A DNA stretch of 64,000 nucleotides from a virus (IMGVR_UViG_3300034073_002120); one strand, 5' to 3'; numbered from the stretch's first letter, positions 5,726 to 41,555 are shown. Numbers and translations: made by a program. The notes: generated from the sequence alone by a model not told the origin.

Positions 5726-5757
5726 CAAATATACGAAATATATTCCATATTACCAAA
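5726..5757 (-). promoter_or_regulatory. Bacteroidota sigma-A type promoter
   Basis: TTTG-N20-TATATTTG on the minus strand. Confidence 0.8.
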
Positions 5758-7284: not shown

Positions 7285-8907
<1,623 letters not shown>

Positions 8908-8924
8908 TTATTTTTTTATTTTTA

Positions 8925-8956
8925 CAAAGATACAAAATATTTTTGAAATTACCAAA
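8925..8956 (-). promoter_or_regulatory. Bacteroidota sigma-A type promoter for groEL
   Basis: TTTG-N20-TATCTTTG. Confidence 0.8.
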
Positions 8957-8959
8957 CAA

Positions 8960-8984
8960 AAATGGGAGAATTTTTCTCCCATTT
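8960..8984 (-). terminator. Intrinsic terminator after the TonB-dependent transporter
   Basis: 11-bp stem AAATGGGAGAA/TTCTCCCATTT with a 3-nt loop, followed by T-rich sequence on the minus strand. Confidence 0.8.
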
Positions 8985-9005
8985 AAGTTTAGTTTTATTT
9001 TAGTA

Positions 9006-12000
9006 TTATCTACCAAAGATATAACGAATACCTAATTGTGCAGACCATACATCAAATACTGATGAATTGTACTGATAAGTATCTCTAGCTAAGATAGTAG
9101 AACCATCTGCTAATTTTTGAGTTGCTAACTTATAAACTGGTTCACCATTTGTTGTAGTTGAATAGTTTAAGATAGTTGGAATAGTTGCTCTTTGAGAAAC
9201 ACCCCACTCATTATTTAATAAATTACCAAAGTTCAAAATATCAGCTCTGATTTGAATTGTATTCTTTTTACCTTTAACATTTACATAAATATCTTGTACA
9301 ACTGATAAATCGAATCTATGTAACATCGGTAAGAATGAACCATTTCTTTCAGCATATTGACCTCTACGAGATGATAAATATTTATCTTGTCCGATGTAAG
9401 AATCAAATGCTGCTTGTTGTTCAGCTTCAGTATATGTTCTTCCACCTGCAGTTAATGGTGCGAATTTAATATCAGAACCTTTTGATGGAACGAAAATTAA
9501 ATCATTACCTGCTATTCTATCACCATTCATATCACCACCGATTGTGTAAGAGAATGGGTTACCCTGATTTCCTACATAACCTAATGTGAATGAAGTTGCA
9601 CCACCCATACCTTTACCATATTCTAATCTATATCCTAACAAACCAACTAAACGATTTGGAGATAAAAAATTTGAATTAGATAAAGATAAATCGTTATTAC
9701 CATTTACACTTCTTGCACCTGTCCAACTACCTGAAGCGATTGAACCTGCACTCATAAAGTCTTTAGCATCTGATACCGTCCAAGCAAATGAACCGAACAC
9801 ACCTTTTTGGTAAGGATATTCTAATTTCAAAGTTAATGAACTGAATGATGCATCATTTGAATTAGTTAATACAATTGCGTTTGAAACATTACTATTTACT
9901 CTAACACTTGCATCAGTTCTACCATACATCGCTCTTGTATCAACACCTGCGAATATACCAGTTGGAACACCAAAGTTTGCGTTATAATAATGAACTGCAT
10001 TTAAGTTTTTATTTGTAATAAATTCTGCAGTACCGATGAACCCAAATGGTAATTTTTGGTCAATTGCGATATTAGATTTCCAAACTTGTGGGAACTTATA
10101 GTTCTCATCTGTAAATGCCAAATCAAATGTAGATGGTAAAGTTGGAGTTGATGGAATAAAGTATTTGTTAGGGTCAGCAGTGAAACCATATTTAGCTGCT
10201 GCAGCACCACTAGCATCAATATATCCTGTCAATACACCATTATTACCTACTTGATTTGAAATGAATACATATGGAGGTCTACCAGTGAATACACCTGTAC
10301 CACCTCTTAATTGTGTTTTTCTATCACCAAATACATCGTAGTTAAATCCGAAACGAGGTTCGAAAAGTGTTTGTGTTTTTGGTAATTTACCAGTATTAAA
10401 CTTTTGTCCACCTGCAAATGTCATCGCCGTTACTGCTGGGTTTTCTAATGCAGTTTGTTCGAATGAAATTACTGCAGCTCTTAAACCCAAAGTAAACTTT
10501 AAGTTTTCAGTTGCCTGATATTCATCTTGTCCGTAAATATCTAATCTATCAGTTTTCAAAGTTTGTAATGGTTCTGCTGCTCCTGGTAATGCCGAATAAC
10601 GGAATTGGAAACGAGCGGGTGTCAACGTAGAAGGTGCTCCACCATTTGCTAATGATTGATTAGCTGCGGTGTAGAAATCTGCTAAACTATTGAAAATATA
10701 AACACCATTAGATGCTGGGAAAAATAAGTTATTAGATTGATATTTCTCATAGTTAAAACCTAATGTCAAAGTGTGTTTATCTGCATACTTTGTTAAGTTG
10801 TTTGTAATATGGAAAGTATTGTAATCTAATTTATTTCCAGGTGTGAATGGGTCAAAACCTACTGCCGTAAGAGTTGTTGCTCCTTCTTTAATATCCACAG
10901 TTGGGAATACATTAGAAAGATAAGCTCTATTTTCAATTTGTTTATCATAACCAACAATTAAGTTATTATGTAAAGTGTTTGATAATTTAGAGTTTAATTC
11001 TAACACATAAGAACGTGTATTATCCATAATACCATAACCACTATTCTTAAAACTCATTGCTAATGCTGATTGAGTTCTATTACCAAATCCTGCTGAAGAA
11101 GAGTTTGAAATGTTAATTTCTGCTTCAGAATCGTGATGAACATAACGTGCGGTTAATTTATGTTTATCGTTGATGTTCCAATCCATACGAACTAAGAATT
11201 TCTTAGATGCGTTTGTGTTAGAATACCCTTCAAATGGACCAGTTGTGTAATTAAACTTATCTTGCATAAATTTAGATAAGTCTGATAATTGTGTATAAGT
11301 TGGTCTGCTAACTTGCGAACCTGTTAATGGAGAACCTGTTGAAATCCAATTTGTTCCTGGTTCAGTTTTCTCAATTTGTTCGTAGTTTCCAAAGATGAAT
11401 AATTTATTCTTAATGATTGGAGCACCCAAACGGAAACCTTGTACCTTCTCATCAAATTTAGATGCGGTTACTTTTGTTCCTCTTGCATTATCACCAACAT
11501 ATGTAGATGAATTGTTTCTTTGTGTTTGATATACCGAACCTTCAATTTCGTTTGTACCAGAACGAGTTACTGCATTGATACCAGCACCAGTAAATCCACT
11601 CTGACGAATATCGAAAGGTGCGATGTTTACTTGTAATTGCTCAATCGCATCTAATGAAATTGCCGATGCTCCGGTTCTACCACCAGCTTGTGCAGATGAA
11701 CCTAAACCGAATCCATTATTGAATTGAGAACCATCGATTGTAAAGTTATTCAAACGAGAATCTTGTGCTCCGAATGAGTTTCCGTTTCCGTTTGGATTGT
11801 ATTTAGTAATACCATCGATTGTTCTTGCTCCCGTAATTGGAATGTTTTGTAAATCTCTACGAGTGAATTGTTGAGATGCACCAGTTCTTTCTCTTGATAT
11901 AAGATTATTTCTACCGGCACTTACTACCACTTCTTTTAATGTAGTAGTTTCATCAACTAAAACAAAATCAACGTTTGTAGTAATACCCAATTGAGTATTC

Positions 12001-12275
12001 ACATCTTTGATTTCATCTTTTTTGTATCCTACATAAGTAGTGTGTAATACATATGGACCACCTACTCTAATTGCAGGTAAAACATATGCACCATTTTTGT
12101 TGGTTACAGCATTATACTGCGTACCGGTTGGGGTATGTACTGCGTGAATCGTAGCACCTACCAACACTTCATTTTTCTCGTTTTTCACAACACCTGAAAT
12201 TGAGGAAGTAGTAATCTGACTAAATCCAAAAAATGAGGTCATTGCGAAAAGTAACGATAAAATTAGTTTTTTCAT
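9006..12275 (-). CDS. TonB-dependent outer-membrane transporter (Oar-like, N-terminal carboxypeptidase-regulatory-like domain)
   Basis: Signal peptide MKKLILSLLFAMTSFFGFSQ (start 12275), plug motif NNFTIDG...QSGFTGAGINAVTRSGTN, beta-barrel, C-terminal LGIRYIF; 1089 aa, uninterrupted. Confidence 0.9.
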   Translation of the reverse strand: MKKLILSLLFAMTSFFGFSQITTSSISGVVKNEKNEVLVGATIHAVHTPTGTQYNAVTNKNGAYVLPAIRVGGPYVLHTTYVGYKKDEIKDVNTQLGITTNVDFVLVDETTTLKEVVVSAGRNNLISRERTGASQQFTRRDLQNIPITGARTIDGITKYNPNGNGNSFGAQDSRLNNFTIDGSQFNNGFGLGSSAQAGGRTGASAISLDAIEQLQVNIAPFDIRQSGFTGAGINAVTRSGTNEIEGSVYQTQRNNSSTYVGDNARGTKVTASKFDEKVQGFRLGAPIIKNKLFIFGNYEQIEKTEPGTNWISTGSPLTGSQVSRPTYTQLSDLSKFMQDKFNYTTGPFEGYSNTNASKKFLVRMDWNINDKHKLTARYVHHDSEAEINISNSSSAGFGNRTQSALAMSFKNSGYGIMDNTRSYVLELNSKLSNTLHNNLIVGYDKQIENRAYLSNVFPTVDIKEGATTLTAVGFDPFTPGNKLDYNTFHITNNLTKYADKHTLTLGFNYEKYQSNNLFFPASNGVYIFNSLADFYTAANQSLANGGAPSTLTPARFQFRYSALPGAAEPLQTLKTDRLDIYGQDEYQATENLKFTLGLRAAVISFEQTALENPAVTAMTFAGGQKFNTGKLPKTQTLFEPRFGFNYDVFGDRKTQLRGGTGVFTGRPPYVFISNQVGNNGVLTGYIDASGAAAAKYGFTADPNKYFIPSTPTLPSTFDLAFTDENYKFPQVWKSNIAIDQKLPFGFIGTAEFITNKNLNAVHYYNANFGVPTGIFAGVDTRAMYGRTDASVRVNSNVSNAIVLTNSNDASFSSLTLKLEYPYQKGVFGSFAWTVSDAKDFMSAGSIASGSWTGARSVNGNNDLSLSNSNFLSPNRLVGLLGYRLEYGKGMGGATSFTLGYVGNQGNPFSYTIGGDMNGDRIAGNDLIFVPSKGSDIKFAPLTAGGRTYTEAEQQAAFDSYIGQDKYLSSRRGQYAERNGSFLPMLHRFDLSVVQDIYVNVKGKKNTIQIRADILNFGNLLNNEWGVSQRATIPTILNYSTTTNGEPVYKLATQKLADGSTILARDTYQYNSSVFDVWSAQLGIRYIFGR

Positions 12276-12312
12276 AATTGTCCTTTTTTTGTTGTTAAAA
12301 ATTAAATAAACT

Positions 12313-12331
12313 ATTTGAGACCGTCTCAAAT
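12313..12331. promoter_or_regulatory. Perfect interrupted palindrome upstream of the transporter (operator or hairpin)
   Basis: ATTTGAGAC-C-GTCTCAAAT, 37 nt upstream of the ATG. Confidence 0.5.
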
Positions 12332-15033: not shown

Positions 15034-15065
15034 CAAAGATACGAATAATTTTTGAATTATCCAAA
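15034..15065 (-). promoter_or_regulatory. Bacteroidota sigma-A type promoter
   Basis: TTTG-N20-TATCTTTG. Confidence 0.8.
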
Positions 15066-15400: not shown

Positions 15401-17908
15401 TTAAAAGCTAAAGAATTTTTCTGCTGTTTTTTGTTCACTCATTACCTCACCCCAATCCAATGCGTTATAGAAATCTTGTAACTTACCTTTTAATTCAGCT
15501 TCAAAGATTCTATTGTGGTCTATATAAGTTGAAATGAATTTTGTAATTTCTTCGGGGTCATCATAACCTGTAAACGCCAATCCATCAATTCCTAATGGAT
15601 TATTTTTAAGATATACCCACTTTACTTTATCACCATCTTTCATAGGTGAATATTTGAATGGTGCGTTAAAATGTTTCAAACAATCATTATATAGGATTGC
15701 TGCTTTAACGTGGGCAGGAACACCTTTCTCCATTTGGAAAAGTTGTCTTTTCTTTGGAAGATATTTTGATAAGTTTTTTACTGCAGAGTTTTTAGCAATT
15801 TCAGTAATTGGTCTATCTACCATACTCTTTTTGAACGCAAGAACAAATGCTGTAATTTCTTCTTCTGGTTTACTTCGTAGAATATCAATTAAGACAGTTC
15901 CCATACACTCCTGAAATGCTTTTGGAAATGATGAACGTTTTACATCTAATCCTTTAACATCTAATTTATCTACCGCAATACCATTATTAGAAATAATCCA
16001 TTGTGCATATCGTTTCTTTGCAATCCAAATACCTGCTCTAGCAACGTATTCTTTTTTAATTTCTAGTCGATGATTTTGAACGTTAAAGAATTTATCGGAA
16101 AGTATATCGTAGAATTTATTAAGATAATCTTGCATTTCACCTGCGATACCATCTACCAATTGTGCAACTTCACTATCTGGTATTTCTTTCCAATTTGGAT
16201 GACGAAAATCTAATAGTGGAACTGCGGAAAAGAATACTGAATCGGTGTCAATATAAATGTTTGAATCTACATCTTTTGTTCCTAACTCTTTGTTGTATTT
16301 GATGTTCCCCATATTCGCCGAGTTCTTAATAACCGTCTGACCCGTAGTTGTAACTGCCTCCGCATTATCAACATCGTAAAACCGAAAGGCAGGAAGGCCA
16401 AGAACACCATAAAGAGAGTTAAGTAGAATTTTTTGAACCAACTGTCTTTTTCCGTAAAAGGCATATTTTTCTTTATCACCCTCTTGGCCGTACTTTTTTT
16501 CCAACTTTCTAAATTCAACCCTTTCATTAAACCAAATATCTAAAATTTCAGGAATACATCCCATTTTATCTTTACGATACAACACACCATTTGATGATAT
16601 TGTTAAATCTGCTTCTTTAATATATTTTTCTAAATTATCACGAGAAATTCTATCATCTCCCATTTGGTAATAATCTATTTCTTTTTTCATAAATGCTTGA
16701 ACATCCCAATCAGAAATCTTAGCAACCTTAGTTTCTGGACTGATATTCAATGTCATAATGATTGAAGGATATAGTGATGTTAAATCCAAGTCATACACCC
16801 AATCATATTTACCCACAATTGGGTCTTTTACATACGCACCGATGAATTTTTCTTCACCTGCCTCTGCCATTGCTGCTAACTTCTCTTTTCTATCTGCAGG
16901 TTTATTCGGTGCAACTAATCCTTTACGTTTAAGGAAACATAACAATGCACCCTCCAAGTATTTCGATGAATAAACGAAATCTTCATATGGAACGTGCCCT
17001 GCATGACAAATACCTCTACATAAATCTATGAATTGTAATTTCTTATCTAATTCTACAACAATCTCAACGTCCACTAAGTTATACTCAATAAACTTTTCAA
17101 TATCTTCGTTGAATAAATCATCTAATGAACCTTGATACTCAATTTTACCCTTACCTAATTCAATCGTACCAATAGTATCTAATCGATAGTTAGGTAATTC
17201 GTTGTAGTTAAATTTCTTATAAAGGGAAAGGTAATCTAAACAACTTACACCTGCTAAAAACCATCTCTGACGATATGGTGAATAGAATGCTTGACCAATA
17301 GGTGATAATCTTTTTGCTTGTGATTCACCTAAGATACGTTTCATTCGGTTGAATAGATACGGAATATCAAAATTATCAATATTCCAACCTGTTAGAATAT
17401 CTGGTTGAATTCCTTCGTATAACTCTAAGAACTTCATACACATATCTCTCTCATCTCTGAAAGGGATTACGATTGCCTTATCGGTTTTACGTTCAACCAT
17501 TTGACCTTTCTTATCCATTACCAATACCCAATATTGATTGGTTACACTATCTTGTAAACCGATAGCGGTAAGTTCGTTCTCTGCCTTTTCAGTATCAGGT
17601 AATCCACTTTCCATTTCCACCTCAATATCAAACGTCATCGTTACAATACCTTCGGATGGAATATCAGAATCGACATAAGTATCCACTAACACACGAGTTG
17701 TTTCAGGTACATCCGATTCAAACAAATCGGGGTCATCGTTTTTGAATTTATAAATTTTTGTTAGACGGTCACCATAGATGGAACGTGCTTCACCTCTCTC
17801 TGCTCTTTCATACGCATAACGTGTATATGGAAATGTTCTATAACCTAAATGGGAATCCCATAAGTGTATTAGATTGCGTTCTCTTTGGTAATATATGTTT
17901 TTATACAT
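15401..17908 (-). CDS. polB: Family B DNA polymerase (T4 gp43-like)
   Basis: Exo FDIE, motif A DLDLTSLYPS, motif B KILLNSLYG, motif C YIDTDS. Confidence 0.97.
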   Translation of the reverse strand: MYKNIYYQRERNLIHLWDSHLGYRTFPYTRYAYERAERGEARSIYGDRLTKIYKFKNDDPDLFESDVPETTRVLVDTYVDSDIPSEGIVTMTFDIEVEMESGLPDTEKAENELTAIGLQDSVTNQYWVLVMDKKGQMVERKTDKAIVIPFRDERDMCMKFLELYEGIQPDILTGWNIDNFDIPYLFNRMKRILGESQAKRLSPIGQAFYSPYRQRWFLAGVSCLDYLSLYKKFNYNELPNYRLDTIGTIELGKGKIEYQGSLDDLFNEDIEKFIEYNLVDVEIVVELDKKLQFIDLCRGICHAGHVPYEDFVYSSKYLEGALLCFLKRKGLVAPNKPADRKEKLAAMAEAGEEKFIGAYVKDPIVGKYDWVYDLDLTSLYPSIIMTLNISPETKVAKISDWDVQAFMKKEIDYYQMGDDRISRDNLEKYIKEADLTISSNGVLYRKDKMGCIPEILDIWFNERVEFRKLEKKYGQEGDKEKYAFYGKRQLVQKILLNSLYGVLGLPAFRFYDVDNAEAVTTTGQTVIKNSANMGNIKYNKELGTKDVDSNIYIDTDSVFFSAVPLLDFRHPNWKEIPDSEVAQLVDGIAGEMQDYLNKFYDILSDKFFNVQNHRLEIKKEYVARAGIWIAKKRYAQWIISNNGIAVDKLDVKGLDVKRSSFPKAFQECMGTVLIDILRSKPEEEITAFVLAFKKSMVDRPITEIAKNSAVKNLSKYLPKKRQLFQMEKGVPAHVKAAILYNDCLKHFNAPFKYSPMKDGDKVKWVYLKNNPLGIDGLAFTGYDDPEEITKFISTYIDHNRIFEAELKGKLQDFYNALDWGEVMSEQKTAEKFFSF

Positions 17909-17927: not shown

Positions 17928-18875
17928 TTATGTAAATTTTAATATAGTGTTTTGTTTGGATATTTCAAATATTTCTTTACCCTTTTCATTCATATCAATT
18001 AAGGTATAAAATCGATTCGTATTTAAACATGCTCTACCTAATGTACCACTACCTGCAAATATATCCAAACAATTTGAGTTTTCGTTTGAATATAAATTTA
18101 CAATTCTTTCTAATAATGCTACTGGTTTTTGAGTAGCATAATCAAGTTTTTCGTTCATTTGTATCGTACTAATATCATTCCAGACATCTTTTAGTGGAAT
18201 CCCACCACTTTCATGTAAATAGCGTTTTATTCTTGGTATTCCTGCAGAATTATATTCCAATCTATTAGAATTATGTAATTCTTGCATTTTTTCAACGGAA
18301 ACCCACCATTGTTTCATATGACCGTTCCATTCATATCTCAAATTAGGTCTTTGTATTACATTAGGTTGTGAATTTACGGCAGCAGATGTGGTATATTTAC
18401 CATTTGAATCTTCTTTTGCTTTTTTTACATAATCAAGATTATATGGTAATAAAATTCTATTAAAAATAGCTTTATTTTTATTTTTAGAATAAATTAATAA
18501 TACATCATGTTGTCTCATTAATTTATTTTTAACTGATTTTTGATTTGAGGTAATCCATATCAATTCATTTCTAAAATTTTTTATACCAAAAATGGAATCT
18601 AATAAAATTTTAACATAATGTGATGCGATAGAATCAATATGGACTATTATATTACCAGATTCAGATAATTTTAAATATATTTCTTGTAATCTAGGTTTTA
18701 AAAAATCTAAAAAATGTTGCATACTTTCAAATGAATCTCCGAAATCACCAAAATCTCTGCCAGTATTATATGGAGGGTCTATGTAACATAAATCATAAGT
18801 ATGTGGTATATTTTTAAGTATTTCTAAATTATCACCAATTAAATATTGATTAATATATTCTATATTATTTTTCAT
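17928..18875 (-). CDS. Beta-class DNA amino-methyltransferase (N6A/N4C)
   Basis: DPPY precedes FAGSG; YATQKP motif. The likely start is MKNNIEY at 18875, overlapping the upstream stop by 11 nt. Confidence 0.9.
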   Translation of the reverse strand: MKNNIEYINQYLIGDNLEILKNIPHTYDLCYIDPPYNTGRDFGDFGDSFESMQHFLDFLKPRLQEIYLKLSESGNIIVHIDSIASHYVKILLDSIFGIKNFRNELIWITSNQKSVKNKLMRQHDVLLIYSKNKNKAIFNRILLPYNLDYVKKAKEDSNGKYTTSAAVNSQPNVIQRPNLRYEWNGHMKQWWVSVEKMQELHNSNRLEYNSAGIPRIKRYLHESGGIPLKDVWNDISTIQMNEKLDYATQKPVALLERIVNLYSNENSNCLDIFAGSGTLGRACLNTNRFYTLIDMNEKGKEIFEISKQNTILKFT

Positions 18876-19446
18876 TTTTTTGTTTGTATTCAGTTTCCAA
18901 TACCTCAATTGCTTTACCAACATATTTTTCCCATATTTTTTTAGGGACACGTGGTAATAAATATTTTGGATTTTTAGGGTCTATCAAAGCAGATTCAGGT
19001 ATAGCAATATATTGCCATTTTTGTATATTTAAATATTCATTAATATCAGGTTTTGAAAAAACATAAACATCGGCCTCACCTGCAGAATATCTTACATGTC
19101 CAGTATCTGAACTAAATTCATTTTTTTGTGATTTTCTACGAGTTTGTTCAAGATGTAATGTATTTGCTCTTAATTTTGATTGTATTTTTAATAAATTATC
19201 AGTTGTAATTAAATCATATCCAGATGCGTTTGAATCCGAACTAAAATCGTTTCGTTTAACTACATTTAAATTTGTATTCTCATTAATCCAATCACACTGT
19301 ATATGTTCATTAGGGTCAGCAAATAATTTACCTAAATCACGTAATTCAATATTTTTTGCCAAATCCTCTTGAGATAACCATAGATAATATACACTTGGTT
19401 CATTTAATTTTAAATAGTTTAGAACTTCATTTTTAGTAGGTATCAT
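18865..19446 (-). CDS. Putative type II restriction endonuclease (PD-(D/E)XK, D...QxK)
   Basis: SGYDLIT...KIQSKLR resembles the D-x(n)-QxK catalytic variant; translationally coupled to the MTase. Confidence 0.55.
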   Translation of the reverse strand: MIPTKNEVLNYLKLNEPSVYYLWLSQEDLAKNIELRDLGKLFADPNEHIQCDWINENTNLNVVKRNDFSSDSNASGYDLITTDNLLKIQSKLRANTLHLEQTRRKSQKNEFSSDTGHVRYSAGEADVYVFSKPDINEYLNIQKWQYIAIPESALIDPKNPKYLLPRVPKKIWEKYVGKAIEVLETEYKQKNEK

Positions 19447-19881: not shown

Positions 19882-20721
19882 TTAAAATTTGTAAATTCCA
19901 CCCACATTCCAGAATAAAATAGTACCCTCAATTTGGTCTATATTTTCTTCTAACCATTTCCATTGTTTTATATCCCAAAATTGGTTACAAGGGAATGGGG
20001 CTGAATATCCTTCTATTCTATCCTCAAAAAGATACTCCGATTTTCGTATGTTTATGGGAATTGGAATACCACTTTTTTTAAGGGTCTTTTTGATTGAACT
20101 TTCAGATGATACACAAGTTGTCCAAACCTTCTTTTTAACATCAGGAAAAAACTCTTTAAGTTCTTCTCTATAATATCCTCTCACAAGACCGGATAGGGTT
20201 ACTCCACTACCAGATGATACTACTAAATTATCAAAATGTGCAAATGGTTGAATTCTTTCTGCAAGATAATCTTTGTAAAAATCGTGGTCAAACGCATAAG
20301 GTAGCATTTGCCAACCATTTTCTCTTGCTTGACCTCTAAGTGAATTATACATAATCTGCATCATATTAGGTCTGATTGGATTTAGATGTGTTTTTGGATA
20401 CATCTCTTTAATCAAACCCAAATACTCTTGCGATATTTTTTTAGAATCTGGATGTGATACATAAAATTCAATATCTAATTCTTCACATATTGCTGCAAGT
20501 GCCCATCCAGTCCAACTGCCATCTACCGAAAGGTGGGTTAGTGGTTTTGAAGGGTCTACATATTTTTTAACCAATTCATATAATGCTGCTATCTTACCCC
20601 ACGGCGGTAATGTTATACCATCACCCATCAAATCATCTCTTTTTACCCAAACCTCTCTTCCTTTAATGTGATAAAGTTCTAAGGGAGTATCTTCATTTAA
20701 TCCTTTTAATCTTACATCCAT
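19882..20721 (-). CDS. PLP-dependent fold-type II enzyme (ACC deaminase / D-cysteine desulfhydrase-like)
   Basis: VWVKRDDL...PPWGK (Schiff-base Lys position), SSGSGVTLSG phosphate loop, C-terminal ILFWNVGG. Confidence 0.75.
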   Translation of the reverse strand: MDVRLKGLNEDTPLELYHIKGREVWVKRDDLMGDGITLPPWGKIAALYELVKKYVDPSKPLTHLSVDGSWTGWALAAICEELDIEFYVSHPDSKKISQEYLGLIKEMYPKTHLNPIRPNMMQIMYNSLRGQARENGWQMLPYAFDHDFYKDYLAERIQPFAHFDNLVVSSGSGVTLSGLVRGYYREELKEFFPDVKKKVWTTCVSSESSIKKTLKKSGIPIPINIRKSEYLFEDRIEGYSAPFPCNQFWDIKQWKWLEENIDQIEGTILFWNVGGIYKF

Positions 20722-22217
20722 TTTTGAAATCCTCCTCCATTTGATACTAATTCTCCTTTCATATTTCGGTGGGAGAACCCGTGAATTTTTTCGAAATTAT
20801 CACCGATTACATTTATCATCTTTTTTCTTTTTTTGAAATTGATGTTAGGGTCATTTAAAATAATTTCTTCAATATATTGTTTAAAATTTGTTCCTTTTTG
20901 GAATGCTCGTTTCTCTTGGTCTAATATCTCATCTGGTAACTTACCTCTAAATCCATCTGCAAGTGGTAATTTCCATTGTCCACCTTTACACAAATACTCA
21001 TCGGTAAGATTCGTAGTATAATTTAGAAAATCAGTATCAAAGAATGGACATCTTAATTCGATTGTTCCATAATTCATAAAGATTGTATTGCCTCTTAGTA
21101 AGTTTCCGTAATATTGTTTTTCAAATAATTTCTTACGAACATCACTCCAATCAGGTTTCTTACTAAACATACGGAAAGTTCCATATGAACCATAACTTTC
21201 ATCACTACCCTCACCACTAAATGCTACTTTGATTCCATCCAACGCCATTTGTTCTGCGATAAATGATTGTAGAATACCAACCTCCATTTGAACGGTCGAT
21301 GGATATTCGATTACTCTAATCGAATCTAAGAAACGTTGTTTGATGATTTCATCATTTTTGGGAACAAATACTTCAACCAATTCTACTCCCAAATACTTTG
21401 CACACACTCTTGCTTTTTGTAAATCTTTTGATGTTTCATCAAATGCAATTGTGTATGCTTTTAAGTTAGGGATTCGTTGGGATAGAAGATAAGTAATTAC
21501 AGCAGAATCAATACCACCACTAAGTGATGTTGCAATTGGTACATCGGATAATAATCTCTTATCTACTGCTCTTTCTAATAATTTGAATGTAGTTTCTGCT
21601 ACCTCTTCATGTGATGTAACCTTTGTTGGTTCTGATGAAAATTGAAAATAAAAGTTTTCGTTTATTGTAATCTTATCAGTATCCAAATCAATTTCAACCA
21701 AACTATTTTTAGGTACAAATTTAATTTCGGATGTTTTATGTTGTGTAGTGATTGATTTTAATTCACTTGCAACTATATAATTGTTTGAATTGTAAATATA
21801 AAGTGGTAATTTACCTACCCAATCTCTCGATAATAATAATTTGTTATTATCATAAATAATGAATGAAAACATACCATCTAACCTCTTCAATTCACCCTCT
21901 TTATATAAGAAAAGAATGATTTCAGAATCCGAATTTGATTTAAAGGTATAACCTCTTTCTTCGTATTCTTTACGCAATTGAGGATAATTCCATATCTCAC
22001 CATTTACTACTAATTGAATACCATCAAATTCCATCGGTTGATTACCTAATGGTGATGTATCGTTGATTGATAAACGATTGTGACCTAATATGATATGTTT
22101 ATCACCATATTGGAATTCTCTAATTCCTCTATTATCTCTTCCGCGATGTTCTATCGCTTCCAACATTTCATTTACTTCATCTCTTTTATATCCTATGGTT
22201 GCTACGATTCCACACAT
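20712..22217 (-). CDS. asnB: AsnB-family glutamine-dependent amidotransferase
   Basis: N-terminal MCGI Ntn nucleophile, HRGRD, HNRLSI, NGEIWNY, PP-loop SLSGGIDS, SGEGSDE, ELRCPFFD. Confidence 0.9.
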   Translation of the reverse strand: MCGIVATIGYKRDEVNEMLEAIEHRGRDNRGIREFQYGDKHIILGHNRLSINDTSPLGNQPMEFDGIQLVVNGEIWNYPQLRKEYEERGYTFKSNSDSEIILFLYKEGELKRLDGMFSFIIYDNNKLLLSRDWVGKLPLYIYNSNNYIVASELKSITTQHKTSEIKFVPKNSLVEIDLDTDKITINENFYFQFSSEPTKVTSHEEVAETTFKLLERAVDKRLLSDVPIATSLSGGIDSAVITYLLSQRIPNLKAYTIAFDETSKDLQKARVCAKYLGVELVEVFVPKNDEIIKQRFLDSIRVIEYPSTVQMEVGILQSFIAEQMALDGIKVAFSGEGSDESYGSYGTFRMFSKKPDWSDVRKKLFEKQYYGNLLRGNTIFMNYGTIELRCPFFDTDFLNYTTNLTDEYLCKGGQWKLPLADGFRGKLPDEILDQEKRAFQKGTNFKQYIEEIILNDPNINFKKRKKMINVIGDNFEKIHGFSHRNMKGELVSNGGGFQKWM

Positions 22218-22218
22218 A

Positions 22219-22917
22219 TTATCTATTTAATACTTCTAATAACTTATGAGTTTTTTTAGTTTCATCATTCATTTTACCGATATGACAAGAACAAGCTAAA
22301 ACTGATACTTTTTCTAATTCCATATCACTTTCTTTTGCTAAGAACTTACCCATCTCTACTAATGCAGTATAATCTGCATAACCTGATTTAGATACTCTAT
22401 TTGAACGAATGATTGATGTTAGGTAGATTTTACCATTACGAGGTTTAATATCGATTGCTAACATACAAGGTTGTGAATACGGATTTCGTGCATCTCTACT
22501 CGGGTCAAAGATAATCAATTCACATCTTTTAACTGCTTTACCAGTCTTTAAGATTTTGATTACATTCTCTACCTGATTGAAAGTTCCTTGCCACGAAACC
22601 ATTCTACCCCAATATGAATCGTGCCATTTATCTTTGATGAATTTATATTCTAACCCTTCCTCTGCTTGAAAGAATGGAGAATCCGAAACAAATGGTTGTG
22701 GTTCTAAGAATGTTACGGTCTTTGCGTAATCAATTCTATCATCACCCATAATCTCTCTAAAATGAGGGTCAAACCAATCATCAGATTCAAACTTTGTGAT
22801 TTCGGTCATCACATTTAATTCTTCGGTTAAATCACCTACTTTTACTCCGTTTTGGATAAGATGTTTAGATACTTTTACCCATGCATCGCCAGGAGATGTT
22901 GCTTCTATTACTGTCAT
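22219..22917 (-). CDS. Divergent thymidylate-synthase / dCMP-hydroxymethylase-fold protein
   Basis: SYWGR, NQVENVIKIL, QPC catalytic Cys, RSN...ADY with Asp at the dUMP/dCMP discriminator, CHI. Confidence 0.8.
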   Translation of the reverse strand: MTVIEATSPGDAWVKVSKHLIQNGVKVGDLTEELNVMTEITKFESDDWFDPHFREIMGDDRIDYAKTVTFLEPQPFVSDSPFFQAEEGLEYKFIKDKWHDSYWGRMVSWQGTFNQVENVIKILKTGKAVKRCELIIFDPSRDARNPYSQPCMLAIDIKPRNGKIYLTSIIRSNRVSKSGYADYTALVEMGKFLAKESDMELEKVSVLACSCHIGKMNDETKKTHKLLEVLNR

Positions 22918-22928
22918 ATTATTTAATT

Positions 22929-24161
22929 TTATAATTTACGAAAAATCCATATCGGTTCACAAAACGTTTTATCTTTTGCTTCTTCGTTCTTTTTCAGTTC
23001 TTCTTCGGAATATCTTTCTTCATCACCCTCTATAATCATTCCTGCCCCTGCAGAACCCGGTCTTTTCGCCATTTCCATACCCAAACATCCCTCGTAATGT
23101 GCACCTTCTAGAGTGGAAATAAAATCGTTCATAGGATTAGTGATTTCTTGTTGACCTTTACCATCACCTTTTGAGGATGCATATACATCTGCAATGTTCA
23201 CTGCTAAGTAACCACCTTTCTTAATAGTTGGCCATACATTAGCAATAGTTTTATGTAAGAAATTTTTATTCCAATCATCAATTGTTTTATATCGTATCCA
23301 ACTTTGAGTATCATCATATGAATACCTTTCTACGTTGAAATATGGTGGCGAACTGAATACAATATCAAAGTATTCGTTATACTCACTCAAATCCAAATCT
23401 TCTGCTGGTGATTCATAAAATGTTGATTTCTTTTCAGTTTCAAAGAATCCATTATTCTTTTCATAGAAATCCGCTTGTTGTCTATAAATTGGATGATTTT
23501 CTTTACGAGGGTCAATACCTACATAATGTTCTCCGTATTCTGATGCATAAAATCCACATAATCTATCACCCCATCCAGCTGAAATATCTAATACATTCTT
23601 TGCTTGAACGAAATCATATAATGCCTTTGCAACGTTTGGTTTAAATTGGGAACAAATGTATTTTCGCAAAGATAAACAAGTTCGTAATGTAGTATTACTA
23701 ACTTCATCGAATTTTAGAGTGTACATACCACCCATAAGTGAGAACATAAAATCAGGATTATTCCAAGTTCTATACGGCCCAGGTGAAACTGTGCCATCTA
23801 CACTCCATCGATTTGCTTGTTGAAAATAATTTGAGGCAGGATTACCAGTGTTTAATCTTCTAACGAATTGTTGTTTACCTTGAAACTCAAATGGATATCG
23901 AGATTCAGATGCCTTTCGTGGCACCCATGCTCCTTCGGTAAATAATTCATGCCAACGAATACCTTTTAGTTTAAGATATTCATTTCTTGCTTCTTCTTCG
24001 GAAATTGGAGCATATGGGATTTCGTATGTTGCTGCAACTTTTGCAAGAGATTCTTTTACATCTTCTCTATCGAAAGTTTTCTTAATATACTCCCATTCCT
24101 CATTACCGATAAAGAGATACGGAGTCATTCCGTAAAACTTATCAAAGTATTCTAAATACAT
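22929..24161 (-). CDS. SAM-dependent amino-methyltransferase-like protein (motif I then SPPY)
   Basis: LDISAGWGDR, HYVGIDP, FSSPPYF, NIAD. Confidence 0.8.
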   Translation of the reverse strand: MYLEYFDKFYGMTPYLFIGNEEWEYIKKTFDREDVKESLAKVAATYEIPYAPISEEEARNEYLKLKGIRWHELFTEGAWVPRKASESRYPFEFQGKQQFVRRLNTGNPASNYFQQANRWSVDGTVSPGPYRTWNNPDFMFSLMGGMYTLKFDEVSNTTLRTCLSLRKYICSQFKPNVAKALYDFVQAKNVLDISAGWGDRLCGFYASEYGEHYVGIDPRKENHPIYRQQADFYEKNNGFFETEKKSTFYESPAEDLDLSEYNEYFDIVFSSPPYFNVERYSYDDTQSWIRYKTIDDWNKNFLHKTIANVWPTIKKGGYLAVNIADVYASSKGDGKGQQEITNPMNDFISTLEGAHYEGCLGMEMAKRPGSAGAGMIIEGDEERYSEEELKKNEEAKDKTFCEPIWIFRKL

Positions 24162-24174
24162 AACCTTTTATATT

Positions 24175-24414
24175 TTATAATTTTTTTAATGGGACAAGTT
24201 TACCATCAACTATTTTATGAGGAACTCCATCTCTAATTATAAATTTAGGAGCTTTACTCATATCAATTCCTTCTTTACGCAATTCGTTTTTAATTTCCTT
24301 TTTACGAATTTCTTCTTCTCGTTTTGAAAACCATCTTTTAGATTTTTCACTACCTTCTTTTGGTAAAGATAAATTATGTTTCTTAAAACTTTTATTTTTT
24401 TTAATATCACCCAT
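24175..24414 (-). CDS. Hypothetical basic protein
   Basis: 79-aa Lys-rich ORF directly after a sigma-A promoter. Confidence 0.6.
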   Translation of the reverse strand: MGDIKKNKSFKKHNLSLPKEGSEKSKRWFSKREEEIRKKEIKNELRKEGIDMSKAPKFIIRDGVPHKIVDGKLVPLKKL

Positions 24415-24433: not shown

Positions 24434-24465
24434 CAAAGATACGAAAAATATTTCGTATTTCCAAA
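24434..24465 (-). promoter_or_regulatory. Bacteroidota sigma-A type promoter driving the modification cluster
   Basis: TTTG-N20-TATCTTTG. Confidence 0.8.
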
Positions 24466-24917: not shown

Positions 24918-26699
24918 TTATCCTTCGCAACTTAAACATTCAGGGTCCATTGCCTTTGTTGCAATATCACCTCTTAATACCGATTCGGTTCTCATATAAT
25001 ATAGAGTTTTTACACCTTGTTTCCAAGCCTCTAATGTTACTTGATTTATCCATTTTGGTTCTGCGATTGCAGGGAATGCTAAGTTTAACGAAACTGCTTG
25101 GTCAATATATTGTTGTCTAATACCTGCCTGTCTTACTAAATCTAATTGGTTGATTTCTTTAAATGTTTTGAATACATCTTTTACATTAAAGGTTTTATGT
25201 CTATCTTCTTCGGAAACCTCTGAACATAATACTACTTTACTATTTACAAAACACCAATTATCTAATTCAGCAATATCTTGTATTGAACCACCATCTGCAA
25301 GAATCTTATCCCACGTTTCTTTTGTGTTGATTCCGACTTTCTTCAATACTTTCTCCAATTCAGCGTTTCTACGAATGAATGTTCCTTTTGAAGTTTGTTC
25401 GGTGAATACGTTTGCTGCCCAAGGCTCGATACCAGAACTAACATCACCACTCAATTTAGAGTTAGATACTGTTGGTGCGATTGCACGTAAGTGAGTGTTA
25501 CGGAATCCACTATCTTTACACCATAATGGTTCACCTAATTCAGATGCCATATCTCTACTTGCTTGTTCTGATTCGATTTTCATTTGAGAGAAAATCTTAC
25601 GAGTTTCAAATTGAGCTGTCATACCTTCAAACGGAATACCTCTTTGTTGTAAGTAAGTGTGCCAACCTAATACACCTAATCCTAATGCCCTACCTTTTTC
25701 TGCTGCACGAACTGAATTTTCAAATCCTTTCATATTCTTAGCCTTTTGAATGAATTCTGAAAGAACTCCATCTAAGAACCAAGTTGATGTGTAAATTAAA
25801 TCCGTATCTTTCCACTCATCATATTTTGCTAAGTTTAAAGAACTTAAACAACAAACAAATGAATGTGATTCATCAGTATGTAAAACAATTTCAGAACAAA
25901 TGTTTGTCATAAACACTTTTAATCCATTTTGTTTATACATCGGTGGGTTTTGTTTGTTTACATTACCCTTAAACATAATATAAGGTTCTCCGGTTGCTTT
26001 TCTCTTTTGTAACAACTTACCCCATTTTCTTCTTGCCTCTTCATCACCATCTTGTAACTTTCTCATAAACTTATCACCAACCACTGCACATTGATGCATA
26101 TTCAAACATTGACGGTTTACATCACCTTTCGGTTCTCTAATTTCCAACCATTGTTCGAAATCTTTATGTTCGATGTTTAAGTTTACTGATGCTGCTCCTC
26201 TTCTTACTGAACCTTGATTTGTTGCAAGGATAGTAGAATCGTATATCTTAGCGAATGGTATTACACCATCAGATGTTCCATTACCTGTAATTGGTGAACC
26301 TGCTGGTCTGATTTGATTTATACCAATACCAACACCACCACCATGTTTTGCAAGTAACATCAACTCTAAGTTTTTATTACCAATATCAAAAATGGAATCC
26401 GCTACATCAATACCAAAGCAAGATATAGGTAAACCTCTATCAGTACCTGTATTTGATAATACCGGAGTTGCCAAACATAACCAACCACGCCAGATGTAAT
26501 CGAAAAATTTTGATGCTAATTGTGGTTTGTTTAATCTTTGTGCTACTTTCGTAGATACTCTCCAATATGCATCTTTGGGAGTTTCACCAGGAAGTAAGTA
26601 ACCTTTGGATATAGTTTTAACATATACCTCCGTATTACCCCACTCTGGGAAATCCACACCCAATTCCCAACCTAAGTCTTCTGCGTAATTTTTTGCCAT
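24918..26699 (-). CDS. nrdA: Class Ia ribonucleotide reductase alpha subunit (short, no ATP cone)
   Basis: LPISC, MTNICSEI, AIAPT, KTLYY, C-terminal CxxC; no intein. Confidence 0.95.
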   Translation of the reverse strand: MAKNYAEDLGWELGVDFPEWGNTEVYVKTISKGYLLPGETPKDAYWRVSTKVAQRLNKPQLASKFFDYIWRGWLCLATPVLSNTGTDRGLPISCFGIDVADSIFDIGNKNLELMLLAKHGGGVGIGINQIRPAGSPITGNGTSDGVIPFAKIYDSTILATNQGSVRRGAASVNLNIEHKDFEQWLEIREPKGDVNRQCLNMHQCAVVGDKFMRKLQDGDEEARRKWGKLLQKRKATGEPYIMFKGNVNKQNPPMYKQNGLKVFMTNICSEIVLHTDESHSFVCCLSSLNLAKYDEWKDTDLIYTSTWFLDGVLSEFIQKAKNMKGFENSVRAAEKGRALGLGVLGWHTYLQQRGIPFEGMTAQFETRKIFSQMKIESEQASRDMASELGEPLWCKDSGFRNTHLRAIAPTVSNSKLSGDVSSGIEPWAANVFTEQTSKGTFIRRNAELEKVLKKVGINTKETWDKILADGGSIQDIAELDNWCFVNSKVVLCSEVSEEDRHKTFNVKDVFKTFKEINQLDLVRQAGIRQQYIDQAVSLNLAFPAIAEPKWINQVTLEAWKQGVKTLYYMRTESVLRGDIATKAMDPECLSCEG

Positions 26700-26715: not shown

Positions 26716-27729
26716 TTAAAATATATCACCCCAATCTTCACCTTCTCCTGCTTTTGAATAATCAGTTGGTCTGATTGCGAAGAAGTCGGTATGTGTAACA
26801 CCGCCTGTTAGGTGATAAAACCAATCCAATTCAGATGCTTTTGTATCATCAAATTCAAAGTAGTCATCTCCACCTTGTATTGGATTGTATCCCAATTCAG
26901 CTAATTTTTCATTTACTCTTTTTGTAATGAATTCTTTTAGGTCATCTTTTTTAAGATTCTCCAAATCACCCATTTCAAAAATCTTATCGATATATTTGTG
27001 TTCTAAATCAATAATGATTTTAGCTGCTTGGTAAATATCTTCTTTTGCTTCTTGTAATAATTCAGGAAATTCATCACACATATGTCTGAATAATTGACAT
27101 CCCATTTTTGAGTGTAGAGATTCATCTCTAACACTCCATTTCATTTGTTGTCCAATACCTTTCAATAGATTTCTCATTTGAAATGAATAAAGAACTGCAA
27201 ATGATGAATATAATGCAACTCCTTCTGCGAATGCAGAGAAGATTGCTAATGAACGTGCAACTTCAACTCTTGCTTTGTGATTTGTATCCAAATCTTTCGG
27301 AGTCCAATCGGCAGTTGTGTTAGTTAGAAGTTCGAAACGTGCTTTCATCGTTTCATCATGTAAGAACCCTTCGAAATTTTCTAATCCTAACGTTTCATTT
27401 AAATAAGAGTATGCGATTGAATGTATAGTTTCCTGCGAACCAAACGCCATAGCCATTTGTCTGATTTCATGTTTTGGAAACCATTTTGTAACCATACCAG
27501 TCCAATAATCGGAAACTGCACATTCCGTTTGAGCGAAACCTAAAAGAATGTTTCCTACTAAATGTTTTTCAGATTCAGTAAGATTTTCATTCCAATCCTT
27601 AACATCACCTTGCATTGGTATTTCAGTATGCAACCAGAATGCTTGCATTTGTTTCAACCAACCTTCCGTATAATAATCTGGATATTCAAATGGTTTGAAA
27701 GGGATTCTTTCAGTAAATAATTTGCTCAT
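26716..27729 (-). CDS. nrdB: Ribonucleotide reductase beta subunit
   Basis: ETIHSIAY, RDESLH di-iron motifs, TDFFA tail. Confidence 0.95.
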   Translation of the reverse strand: MSKLFTERIPFKPFEYPDYYTEGWLKQMQAFWLHTEIPMQGDVKDWNENLTESEKHLVGNILLGFAQTECAVSDYWTGMVTKWFPKHEIRQMAMAFGSQETIHSIAYSYLNETLGLENFEGFLHDETMKARFELLTNTTADWTPKDLDTNHKARVEVARSLAIFSAFAEGVALYSSFAVLYSFQMRNLLKGIGQQMKWSVRDESLHSKMGCQLFRHMCDEFPELLQEAKEDIYQAAKIIIDLEHKYIDKIFEMGDLENLKKDDLKEFITKRVNEKLAELGYNPIQGGDDYFEFDDTKASELDWFYHLTGGVTHTDFFAIRPTDYSKAGEGEDWGDIF

Positions 27730-32778: not shown

Positions 32779-33240
32779 TTATTTTGCCCACTTTCCGTTG
32801 GAAACAATTTGAGCTATAATGCCATATACTGATAGGTCTTGAAACGTATCTTCTACTGCTTCACCAACATTATCTTCTTTACCTAAAACTACCAATTGTT
32901 TTAATCTCTGAATTTTATCATTAATTCTAAACCACAAACCTGTTAGGGATAATTTCTTATCATCATCAGTTTCTAATGATGTTCCTACTGCAATGTTTCC
33001 TGGTCCATAATTGGATTGTTTTAGACAGAATAATTCATATTGAGTAAACATAATACGTTTGAACTCATCAGTCATTTCTGGGTATTGTTTTTCGATTTCT
33101 TCTACGATTTTAGGATTATCGTATTTGATGAACGCAACCTCATCTTCGGTTTGTTCTATTTTGGGAGCAATATTGAGTTCTAATTTGTTCTTAGCCTCTT
33201 GCTTAATGATACGAGGAGTTTGTGTTGTGCTCTTTGACAT
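32779..33240 (-). CDS. DUF1599 / nucleotide-modification-associated (Nmad1-like) protein
   Basis: KQSNYG...FRINDKIQRL...EDTFQDLSVYGII pattern. Confidence 0.7.
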   Translation of the reverse strand: MSKSTTQTPRIIKQEAKNKLELNIAPKIEQTEDEVAFIKYDNPKIVEEIEKQYPEMTDEFKRIMFTQYELFCLKQSNYGPGNIAVGTSLETDDDKKLSLTGLWFRINDKIQRLKQLVVLGKEDNVGEAVEDTFQDLSVYGIIAQIVSNGKWAK

Positions 33241-33264: not shown

Positions 33265-33296
33265 CAAATATACGAAATATATCTGATAATACCAAA
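33265..33296 (-). promoter_or_regulatory. Bacteroidota sigma-A type promoter
   Basis: TTTG-N20-TATATTTG. Confidence 0.8.
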
Positions 33297-33534: not shown

Positions 33535-33566
33535 CAAATATACGAAAAAAATCCGAACTTTCCAAA
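33535..33566 (-). promoter_or_regulatory. Bacteroidota sigma-A type promoter for the lipoprotein
   Basis: TTTG-N20-TATATTTG. Confidence 0.8.
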
Positions 33567-36296: not shown

Positions 36297-36328
36297 CAAA
36301 TATACGAAATATATTTGAATTATCCAAA
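36297..36328 (-). promoter_or_regulatory. Bacteroidota sigma-A type promoter
   Basis: TTTG-N20-TATATTTG. Confidence 0.8.
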
Positions 36329-41523: not shown

Positions 41524-41555
41524 CAAAGATACGAAATTTATTTTGTATTTCCAAA
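41524..41555 (-). promoter_or_regulatory. Bacteroidota sigma-A type promoter, 4 nt from the ATG
   Basis: TTTG-N20-TATCTTTG-TAGA-ATG. Confidence 0.75.

Follow-up and report, generated by a model that had tools for sequence, protein, structure and literature searches.

A four-gene phage cassette as a candidate modular route to pyrimidine hypermodification

In a 64,000-nucleotide stretch of viral DNA (IMGVR_UViG_3300034073_002120), four adjacent genes encode a methyltransferase-fold protein with an SPPY motif, a thymidylate synthase (TS)-like protein, an AsnB-family amidotransferase (P0003) and a fold-type II pyridoxal 5'-phosphate (PLP) enzyme. Throughout, the whole of this 64 kb stretch is called the window, and positions are counted from its first letter. 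We find that the cassette is probably a modular pyrimidine hypermodification route, most likely acting at cytosine C5 in phage DNA and distinct from the two routes that have been characterised. The original prediction, made from the DNA alone, had read the genes as a cytosine C5-modification cassette, and this reading is borne out in part: the genes are conserved as a unit, the TS-like protein carries the Asp of cytosine-type enzymes, and three of the proteins have hypermodification homologues, namely Pseudomonas phage M6 gp52, CmoY and the TS-fold enzymes of the AfhB/MilA/gp42 type. It had also noted no characterised phage pathway with this combination of four enzymes, and full-text literature searches likewise found no paper describing it.

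The genes are as tightly coupled as had been predicted, with gaps of 11 and 1 nucleotides (nt) followed by a 10-nt overlap. The synteny check that had been called for was run across relatives, using the 42 IMG/VR loci with at least 2.4 kb of sequence after the TS-like gene. An AsnB-family gene stands next to the TS-like gene in all 42, bearing a glutaminase in 38 and being ligase-only in four, and in every one of these loci it is followed by a PLP gene, which is of the window's type in 17 and of a second type, 42-50% identical, in 25. Linkage is loosest for the SPPY gene; it lies within 6 kb in 36 of the loci, either upstream of the TS-like gene or directly after the PLP gene, and was not seen there in the other six. 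These counts support the view that the four genes form a conserved functional unit.

In more distant relatives the pairing of TS-like and ligase genes is kept at 33-47% TS identity (loci L057, L060, L077, L078, L079 and L080), and the third enzyme varies. A PLP gene is kept in L080 and L079: L080 carries the order TS-like, AsnB (60% identical) and PLP, and L079 the order SPPY-like, TS-like, ligase-only (29% identity to CmoY, E 1e-20) and PLP (45% identical to that of the window), followed directly by a pyridoxamine 5'-phosphate oxidase family gene (L079:9402-10013), which is consistent with PLP cofactor supply or a flavin role. Elsewhere a B12-type radical S-adenosylmethionine (SAM) enzyme appears. 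In L060 it has 456 residues and follows SPPY-like, TS-like and AsnB (54% identical) genes; the same enzyme occurs in L077 after a ligase-only enzyme, a TS-like gene and a Dam-like methyltransferase; in L063 a B12-type radical SAM gene overlaps the TS-like gene; and in L057 the TS-like protein is fused to a radical SAM domain (P0128) and accompanied by a ligase-only enzyme, an ATP-grasp-like protein and an SPPY-like protein. What stays constant is the TS-like protein together with an AsnB-family ligase; the third place is taken by a gp52-like PLP enzyme or by a B12-type radical SAM enzyme. We considered whether this radical SAM protein is a homologue of M6 gp53 and rejected the idea, as it has no BLAST similarity to gp53 and is of the B12 type, PhpK/BchE-like.

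The TS-like protein scores 20.5 bits against the Pfam model, below the gathering threshold (GA) of 24.3, and its predicted structure (predicted local distance difference test, pLDDT, 88.8) has the TS fold, matching known members with Z scores of 17-20 over about 197 residues and root-mean-square deviations of 2.7-3.0. The top match is the deoxycytidine monophosphate (dCMP) 5-hydroxylase AfhB of phage HY126 (9iqu and 9iqc, Z 20.4 and 20.0), a protein of similar compact size with 197 of 217 residues aligned. The cytidine monophosphate (CMP) hydroxymethylase MilA reaches 19.9, less than 1 from AfhB and hence tied with it, and canonical thymidylate synthases reach about 17.7. Together with the fold, the invariance of Cys151, Arg171 and Ser172 across 20 sequences places the protein in the TS-fold superfamily. 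The QPC and RS motifs and the discriminator Asp that had been read in it (RSNRVSKSGYADY) are all present, and the Asp aligns with those of MilA and AfhB: in a profile alignment, RSNRVSKSGYADY stands opposite RANDAFRGAVSDV of MilA and RSQNCAVVMQLDF of AfhB. The discriminator, at position 177 of E. coli ThyA, is Asp182 here and of the cytosine type. Other active-site positions have diverged, with Arg174 at the equivalent of the folate-contacting Asp169 of ThyA (Ala in distant clade members), a non-acidic Ser148 at that of position 143, and Gly214 at that of the sugar-contacting Tyr two residues past a conserved His. A Lys130-Arg131 pair is conserved among the TS-like proteins and aligns with a Lys-Arg pair of MilA; we take it to be the counterpart of Arg126-Arg127 in ThyA. 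Conservation of Cys151, Arg171-Ser172 and Lys130-Arg131 suggests that the substrate is 5'-phosphorylated.

This combination of residues fits none of the three enzyme classes with which it was compared. A ThyA would have Asn at 177, Asp at 169 and a score above the Pfam GA, against the Asp182, Arg174 and 20.5 bits seen here. Lee et al. (PMC13326640) proposed that hydroxymethylases can be told by an acidic residue at position 143 and 5-hydroxy-dCMP synthases by Asn at position 169. Compared with a T4 gp42-type dCMP hydroxymethylase, the protein shares the discriminator Asp and has Arg at 169 and Ser148 at 143; the analogy to gp42 on which the original prediction drew therefore holds for the discriminator and is incomplete, since the folate Asp is absent. 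A flavin-dependent 5-hydroxy-dCMP synthase would combine Asn169 with Asp177, and the window protein reads RSNR where AfhB reads RSQN. In a search of 1.84 billion representatives, only 14 clusters (at 50% identity) fell below 1e-30, and the signature RS[NQMC][RA]xSK[SA]GY[AG]D is confined to those 14 nearest clusters, more distant TS-fold proteins mostly having RSxD. Judged by this signature, the TS-like proteins form a distinct clade. An ordinary thymidine monophosphate (dTMP) synthase was also considered and rejected: besides the TS-like gene, four complete relatives have a canonical ThyA of their own (about 300 bits, QRSVDTFLGLPFN) and a fifth has ThyX, and plain dTMP synthesis is thereby ruled out.

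P0003 has both domains of an AsnB-family enzyme (GATase_7, 3.5e-31; Asn_synthase, 9.5e-40) and is intact in its motifs, with the glutaminase nucleophile Cys2, the Arg, Asn-Gly-Glu and Asp motifs, the PP-loop SLSGGIDS and the motif SGEGSDE. Its best homologue among isolated phages is gp124 of Streptomyces phage TurkishDelight (33% identity over 467 residues, 236 bits, E 1e-75), which is flanked by homologues of Synechococcus phage S-B43 CmoX (37%, E 3e-73) and CmoA (E 2e-21), with ParB-domain genes adjoining. The arrangement of gp123-125 is the one described by Yang et al. (PMC12783734) for the glutaminase-bearing cluster of CmoY-type enzymes, the second-largest such cluster, which they predicted to amidate 5-carboxymethylcytosine with glutamine-derived ammonia; for CmoY of S-B43, the reaction demonstrated is the ligation of glycine to 5-carboxymethylcytosine in DNA (PMC12783734). 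The C-terminal domain of P0003 aligns with S-B43 CmoY at E 2e-6, and in six related loci the AsnB slot is filled by a 308-residue ligase with the Asn_synthase domain only, which matches S-B43 CmoY at E 1.5e-10. P0003 is nearer to the phage CmoY type (236 bits) than to E. coli AsnB (1ct9, 140 bits), a rough comparison as the two scores come from different programs; it also passes the broad NCBIfam model TIGR01536 (289.5 vs 267.1) and fails the AsnB model PRK09431 (254.8 vs 499). It is predicted to be a glutamine-dependent amidotransferase closest to the glutaminase-bearing CmoY type.

For the PLP enzyme, Pfam gives a weak PALP match (20.4 bits vs 35) and phrog_7093 one of 2.5e-25. Among isolated phages, tblastn found relatives only in Pseudomonas Yua/M6-like and Bordetella phages, where the genes are annotated as "threonine dehydratase". 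The M6 relative is gp52 (YP_001294560), to which it is 26% identical end to end over 278 residues (pairwise E 5e-26). Lys43 aligns with Lys36 of gp52, the proposed PLP lysine, and is probably the PLP lysine here. The two proteins have the C-terminal motif SAPFPCNxFxDxKxWKWL...FWNxG in common, and the Lys together with PFxxNxFWDxKxWxWL...FWNxG is invariant across both PLP types of the related loci. Both gp52 and its relative gp226 of Salmonella phage ViI have been purified and decarboxylate amino-acid:pyrimidine conjugates in DNA (Lee et al., PMC8989533), gp226 acting on ether-linked serine on the pyrimidine. With full-length homology and the PLP lysine kept, the enzyme belongs by sequence to the gp52/gp226 decarboxylase family, and decarboxylation is its putative activity.

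The SPPY protein scores 16.1 bits against Pfam N6_N4_Mtase (GA 26.7), and several orthologues score 28-29.9 in the motif IV region. The SAM motif I LDxSxGWGDR and the motif IV SPPYF are invariant in 12 orthologues (LDISAGWGDR and SSPPYF in the window copy), and the nearest language-model neighbours are viral N4-cytosine and N6_N4 methyltransferase-like clusters. Its model (pLDDT 87) resembles class I methyltransferases in general, Trm11 included; Foldseek returned generic class I methyltransferases alone and so gave no target by fold, a sequence search of the PDB gave nothing meaningful, and the 165-residue N-terminal domain had no match. The class I fold, motif I and a motif IV of the form (S/D/N)PPY are those of N6/N4 amino-methyltransferases. 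Motif I precedes motif IV in gamma-class amino-methyltransferases, in Trm11 and in HemK-like enzymes alike, and the motif order thus leaves the target nitrogen undefined. The protein is probably an N-methyltransferase whose target would be an exocyclic amine or amide on the modified base.

Neither of the standard routes to a modified base was found in the relatives. Five relatives, complete or nearly so, have neither the amino acid:DNA transferase (AADT, PF18724) nor the 5-hydroxymethyldeoxyuridine (5-hmdU) DNA kinase (5-HMUDK, PF18748), with the M6 positive control detected, and the standard thymidine hypermodification route was rejected on this ground. A CmoA homologue and a C5-cytosine methyltransferase (PF00145) are absent from four complete relatives, with the S-B43 control detected, and the CmoA/CmoX route was rejected likewise. 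In the window, tblastn found none of the initiating enzymes of the M6 and S-B43 pathways. With these enzymes absent, neither known route for installing a handle for gp52- or CmoY-type substrates is present. Since the TS-like protein and the ligase form an invariant pair and no other handle-installing enzyme is evident, we favour the TS-like step as the one that directly or indirectly creates a carboxylate-bearing handle.

In the scheme that we propose, the TS-fold enzyme would activate C5 of dCMP through Cys151 and, because the folate-binding Asp is absent, would add something other than a folate-derived methyl group: either a hydroxyl, as AfhB does, or a carboxyl- or amino-acid-bearing group. 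The modified nucleotide would be incorporated into DNA, where the CmoY-like amidotransferase would adenylate the carboxylate of the base and convert it to an amide with ammonia from glutamine; in the sister phages, the glutaminase-less ligase would presumably use another amine. The gp52-like PLP enzyme would act on the alpha-amino-acid part of the side chain, probably by decarboxylation, and the SPPY methyltransferase would methylate a nitrogen, either N4 or the side-chain amine or amide. With the steps in the order that we infer, the likely product would be a cytosine with a short amino or amide side chain that would block host nucleases.

Three chemistries are open for the making of the handle: (a) the TS-like enzyme could hydroxylate position 5 in the manner of AfhB, the hydroxyl then being O-alkylated with an amino-acid unit; (b) it could itself place a carboxyl group, or one bearing an amino acid, directly on C5; or (c) the handle could come from transfer of the SAM-derived 3-amino-3-carboxypropyl group by the SPPY enzyme. 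It is possible, if less likely than not, that the clade whose folate Asp is replaced by Arg or Ala carries out chemistry not known for this fold, placing a carboxyl or amino-acid group directly onto C5 of dCMP, after which the AsnB-family ligase would lock the handle as an amide; carboxylation, or addition to an imino or aminoacrylate electrophile, would be examples of such a reaction. A sub-case of the hypermodification reading, which we hold to be unlikely, makes the TS-like protein a flavin-dependent 5-hydroxy-dCMP synthase whose hydroxyl would be alkylated in DNA, either with the 3-amino-3-carboxypropyl group of SAM through the SPPY enzyme or with an alanyl group through PLP beta-replacement, and trimmed by the PLP and AsnB-family enzymes. 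AfhB argues for it, being the top structural match and likewise combining a cytosine-type Asp with loss of the folate Asp, as does the action of gp226 on an ether-linked serine; however, in place of the proposed diagnostic Asn at 169 (PMC13326640) there is Arg here and, in distant clade members, Ala, the cassette has no linked glycosyltransferase or flavin reductase, and the structural scores of AfhB and MilA are tied.

An improbable alternative is that the cassette makes a free modified nucleotide or a nucleoside-derived small molecule, for example a signalling or inhibitory cytidine derivative as in MilA-type antibiotic pathways. MilA, an antibiotic-pathway CMP hydroxymethylase, is indeed among the closest proteins by sequence and fold, the Tyr that contacts the deoxyribose 3'-OH is lost in the TS-like protein, and the cassette has neither a dCTPase nor a dNMP kinase linked to it; but the characterised homologues of the PLP enzyme and of the ligase both act on DNA, the SPPY gene resembles DNA amino-methyltransferases, the cassette lies in the replication operon between ribonucleotide reductase (RNR) and DNA polymerase, and the swapping of tailoring genes matches that of DNA hypermodification clusters (PMC8989533). 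That the genes are unrelated auxiliary metabolic genes (a short thymidylate synthase, an asparagine synthetase, an amino-acid PLP enzyme and an ordinary DNA methyltransferase) has very little to recommend it, for although the annotation of the Joint Genome Institute calls the TS-like protein a thymidylate synthase, a methanogen-type TS model matches it at 1e-18 (below its cut-off) and P0003 passes TIGR01536, a canonical ThyA or ThyX is present separately in the relatives, the discriminator of the TS-like protein is Asp and its folate Asp is lost, the glutaminase-less, CmoY-like ligase in the AsnB slot of sister phages cannot make Asn from Gln, gene order and coupling persist down to 33-47% identity, and a fusion of TS-like and radical SAM domains exists.

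Several points weigh against a cytosine hypermodification route all the same. Amidation and decarboxylation compete for a single alpha-carboxylate, which leaves the roles of the AsnB-family and PLP enzymes unreconciled under each of chemistries (a) to (c). The TIGR01536 match leaves true Asn synthesis by P0003 compatible with its sequence, and it is the genomic context that argues against it. The cassette has no linked dCTPase, dNMP kinase or glycosyltransferase; dUTPase and dCMP deaminase occur in some relatives and not in others, and no evidence of the dCTPase type points to complete replacement of cytosine. The window was checked for the initiating enzymes of the known pathways by tblastn only, and the 42 loci share ancestry, so that their unanimity does not count as 42 independent events.

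If the TS-fold clade does attach a carboxyl or amino-acid group directly to C5, this would represent a third independent way in which phages install a handle, besides the hydroxymethyl/hydroxyl and the carboxy-SAM (Cx-SAM) carboxymethyl routes, and jumbo phages widespread in fresh and marine waters would contain a base not yet described in DNA. Hypermodifications of phage DNA defeat restriction enzymes and some CRISPR (clustered regularly interspaced short palindromic repeats) nucleases, and they are a source of enzymology and of DNA-labelling tools. Through the cassette, a new modified cytosine, and possibly a new TS-fold reaction, could be sought by direct test, and it comes with swap-in modules: glutaminase-bearing or ligase-only, two PLP types, or B12 radical SAM.

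The features of the window are collected in Table 1. The predicted position of the cassette between RNR and DNA polymerase agrees with the domain matches of the flanking open reading frames (ORFs), and further upstream lie DnaB-like helicase, 5'-3' exonuclease, RecA/UvsX and gp32-like genes; the surroundings are the replication module of a large phage.

Table 1. Positions of the cassette genes and of other features of the window (aa, amino acids; GA, Pfam gathering threshold)
Feature	Position	Strand	Length	Remarks
SPPY methyltransferase-fold gene	22929-24161	(-)	410 aa	
TS-like gene	22219-22917	(-)	232 aa	
AsnB-family gene	20712-22217	(-)	501 aa	product P0003
Fold-type II PLP enzyme gene	19882-20721	(-)	279 aa	
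ORF after promoter	24175-24414	(-)	79 aa	first after promoter; no family matched
Promoter TTTG-N20-TATCTTTG	24434-24465	(-)		heads transcription unit
RNR large subunit	24918-26699			upstream of cassette
RNR small subunit	26716-27729			upstream of cassette
Family B polymerase	15401-17908			downstream of cassette
N6_N4 DNA methyltransferase	17928-18950	(-)		PF01555, 1.4e-44; overlaps ORF 18865-19446
SusC/TonB-dependent-receptor-like ORF	9006-12329	(-)	1107 aa	CarboxypepD_reg and outer-membrane beta-barrel; PF25183, 1.5e-53
GroEL-like chaperonin	7285-8904	(-)		Cpn60_TCP1, 2e-77
DUF1599-like ORF	32779-33240	(-)	153 aa	'nucleotide modification associated domain 1', borderline: 24.6 bits vs GA 25
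Nine promoter-like copies	2473-2504, 5726-5757, 8925-8956, 15034-15065, 24434-24465, 33265-33296, 33535-33566, 36297-36328, 41524-41555	all (-)		

The host-type promoter that had been predicted ahead of the cassette is real, and it is of the Bacteroidota -33/-7 type, not sigma-70, matching TTTGN{18,21}TANNTTTG exactly; the prediction needs correcting in that a small ORF precedes the first cassette gene. This ORF occurs in just one related locus (L046) and is not conserved with the cassette. The TTTG/TAnnTTTG pattern is found 12 times in the window against 3.4 expected, a count reached in none of 100 shuffles, and a sigma-70 promoter scan of the window remained at chance level. Nine of the copies, all on the coding strand, stand immediately ahead of ORFs and have an extended consensus in common, TTTGG(A/T)AA...TTTCGTAT(A/C)TTTG. 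This repeated promoter-like element, of the Bacteroidota TTTG/TAnnTTTG type, marks the transcription units of the early/replication region.

The interval between cassette and polymerase holds a strong N6_N4 DNA methyltransferase and two small ORFs (193 and 98 residues), which are found in none of the 50 related loci and look like a strain-specific insertion. About 10 kb from the cassette, the DUF1599-like ORF has its own promoter, and a similar match occurs in four of five complete relatives; judged by this domain match, it is a possible candidate for an extra cassette component. The window also encodes a GroEL-like chaperonin, and a chaperonin homologue stands between the PLP and SPPY genes in several related phages (e.g. 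L044:8462-10084), which indicates a mobile position. Between the same two genes, one group of relatives has dUTPase-family and T3-type S-adenosylmethionine lyase family genes (L020:9008-10242). In L060, an IS605 OrfB/TnpB-like gene and a homing-endonuclease-like ORF interrupt the cassette (L060:6766-7944 and 8825-9361), and the neighbouring RecA gene is apparently split by intein-like sequences (L060:13937-16580).

No match to the region was found by megablast among 50,697 phage records. The polymerase of the window shares 51% identity with its counterpart in Microcystis phage Mel-JY01 and about 33% with those of T4-like cyanophages. In IMG/VR we identified 50 related loci; the contigs that carry them reach 288,673 bp, terminal repeats mark one of them, and several are rated complete. 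The cassette is abundant: at least eight studies, covering subsurface, freshwater and aquatic metagenomes, contain the DNA, hundreds of metagenomic proteins belong to it, and the Tara samples too include close homologues of the TS-like protein. A SusC-like ORF within a phage replication region is an unusual auxiliary gene. From the promoter type, the G+C content of 32% and this TonB-dependent receptor gene, we infer that the host belongs to the Bacteroidota.

The system most like the cassette in its PLP enzyme is the thymidine hypermodification pathway of M6 and ViI, in which a dUMP hydroxymethylase, 5-HMUDK, an amino acid:DNA transferase, a radical SAM isomerase and the gp52/gp226 PLP decarboxylase work together (PMC8989533). 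Both have a TS-fold enzyme with a homologous PLP enzyme (26% identity, with the Lys and the C-terminal motif in common), a radical SAM enzyme (here in relatives), RNR and replication genes as neighbours, and combinatorial swaps of tailoring genes, as is known for DNA hypermodification clusters (PMC8989533). They differ in that the TS-fold enzyme here is of the cytosine type without the folate Asp, an AsnB-family enzyme is always present, the relatives lack the 5-hmdU DNA kinase and the amino acid:DNA transferase, and the radical SAM enzyme is of the B12 type without similarity to gp53. With the CmoA, CmoX and CmoY system of S-B43, which makes 5-carboxymethylcytosine (PMC12783734), and TurkishDelight gp123-125, the cassette shares AsnB-family tailoring on a carboxylate handle and, as in the CmoY network, the occurrence of both glutaminase-bearing and ligase-only versions; unlike them, its relatives have neither the Cx-SAM synthase CmoA nor the C5-cytosine methyltransferase CmoX, a TS-fold and an SPPY enzyme stand in their place, and a PLP enzyme is added. 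Among TS-fold enzymes, gp42, MilA, AfhB and RB69 gp48 resemble the TS-like protein in fold (Z 17-20), catalytic Cys, Arg-Ser, the Lys-Arg of the dimer phosphate site and the discriminator Asp. The TS-like clade departs from them at position 169, where it has Arg or Ala against the Asp of gp42 and MilA and the Asn of the hydroxylases AfhB and RB69 gp48 (PMC13326640), and also in the Ser at 143, the loss of the Tyr after the His, and its own invariant SK[SA]GY[AG]D. As judged by homology, the cassette pairs one type of tailoring enzyme from each of the M6/ViI and S-B43 pathways with an uncharacterised clade of TS-fold proteins.

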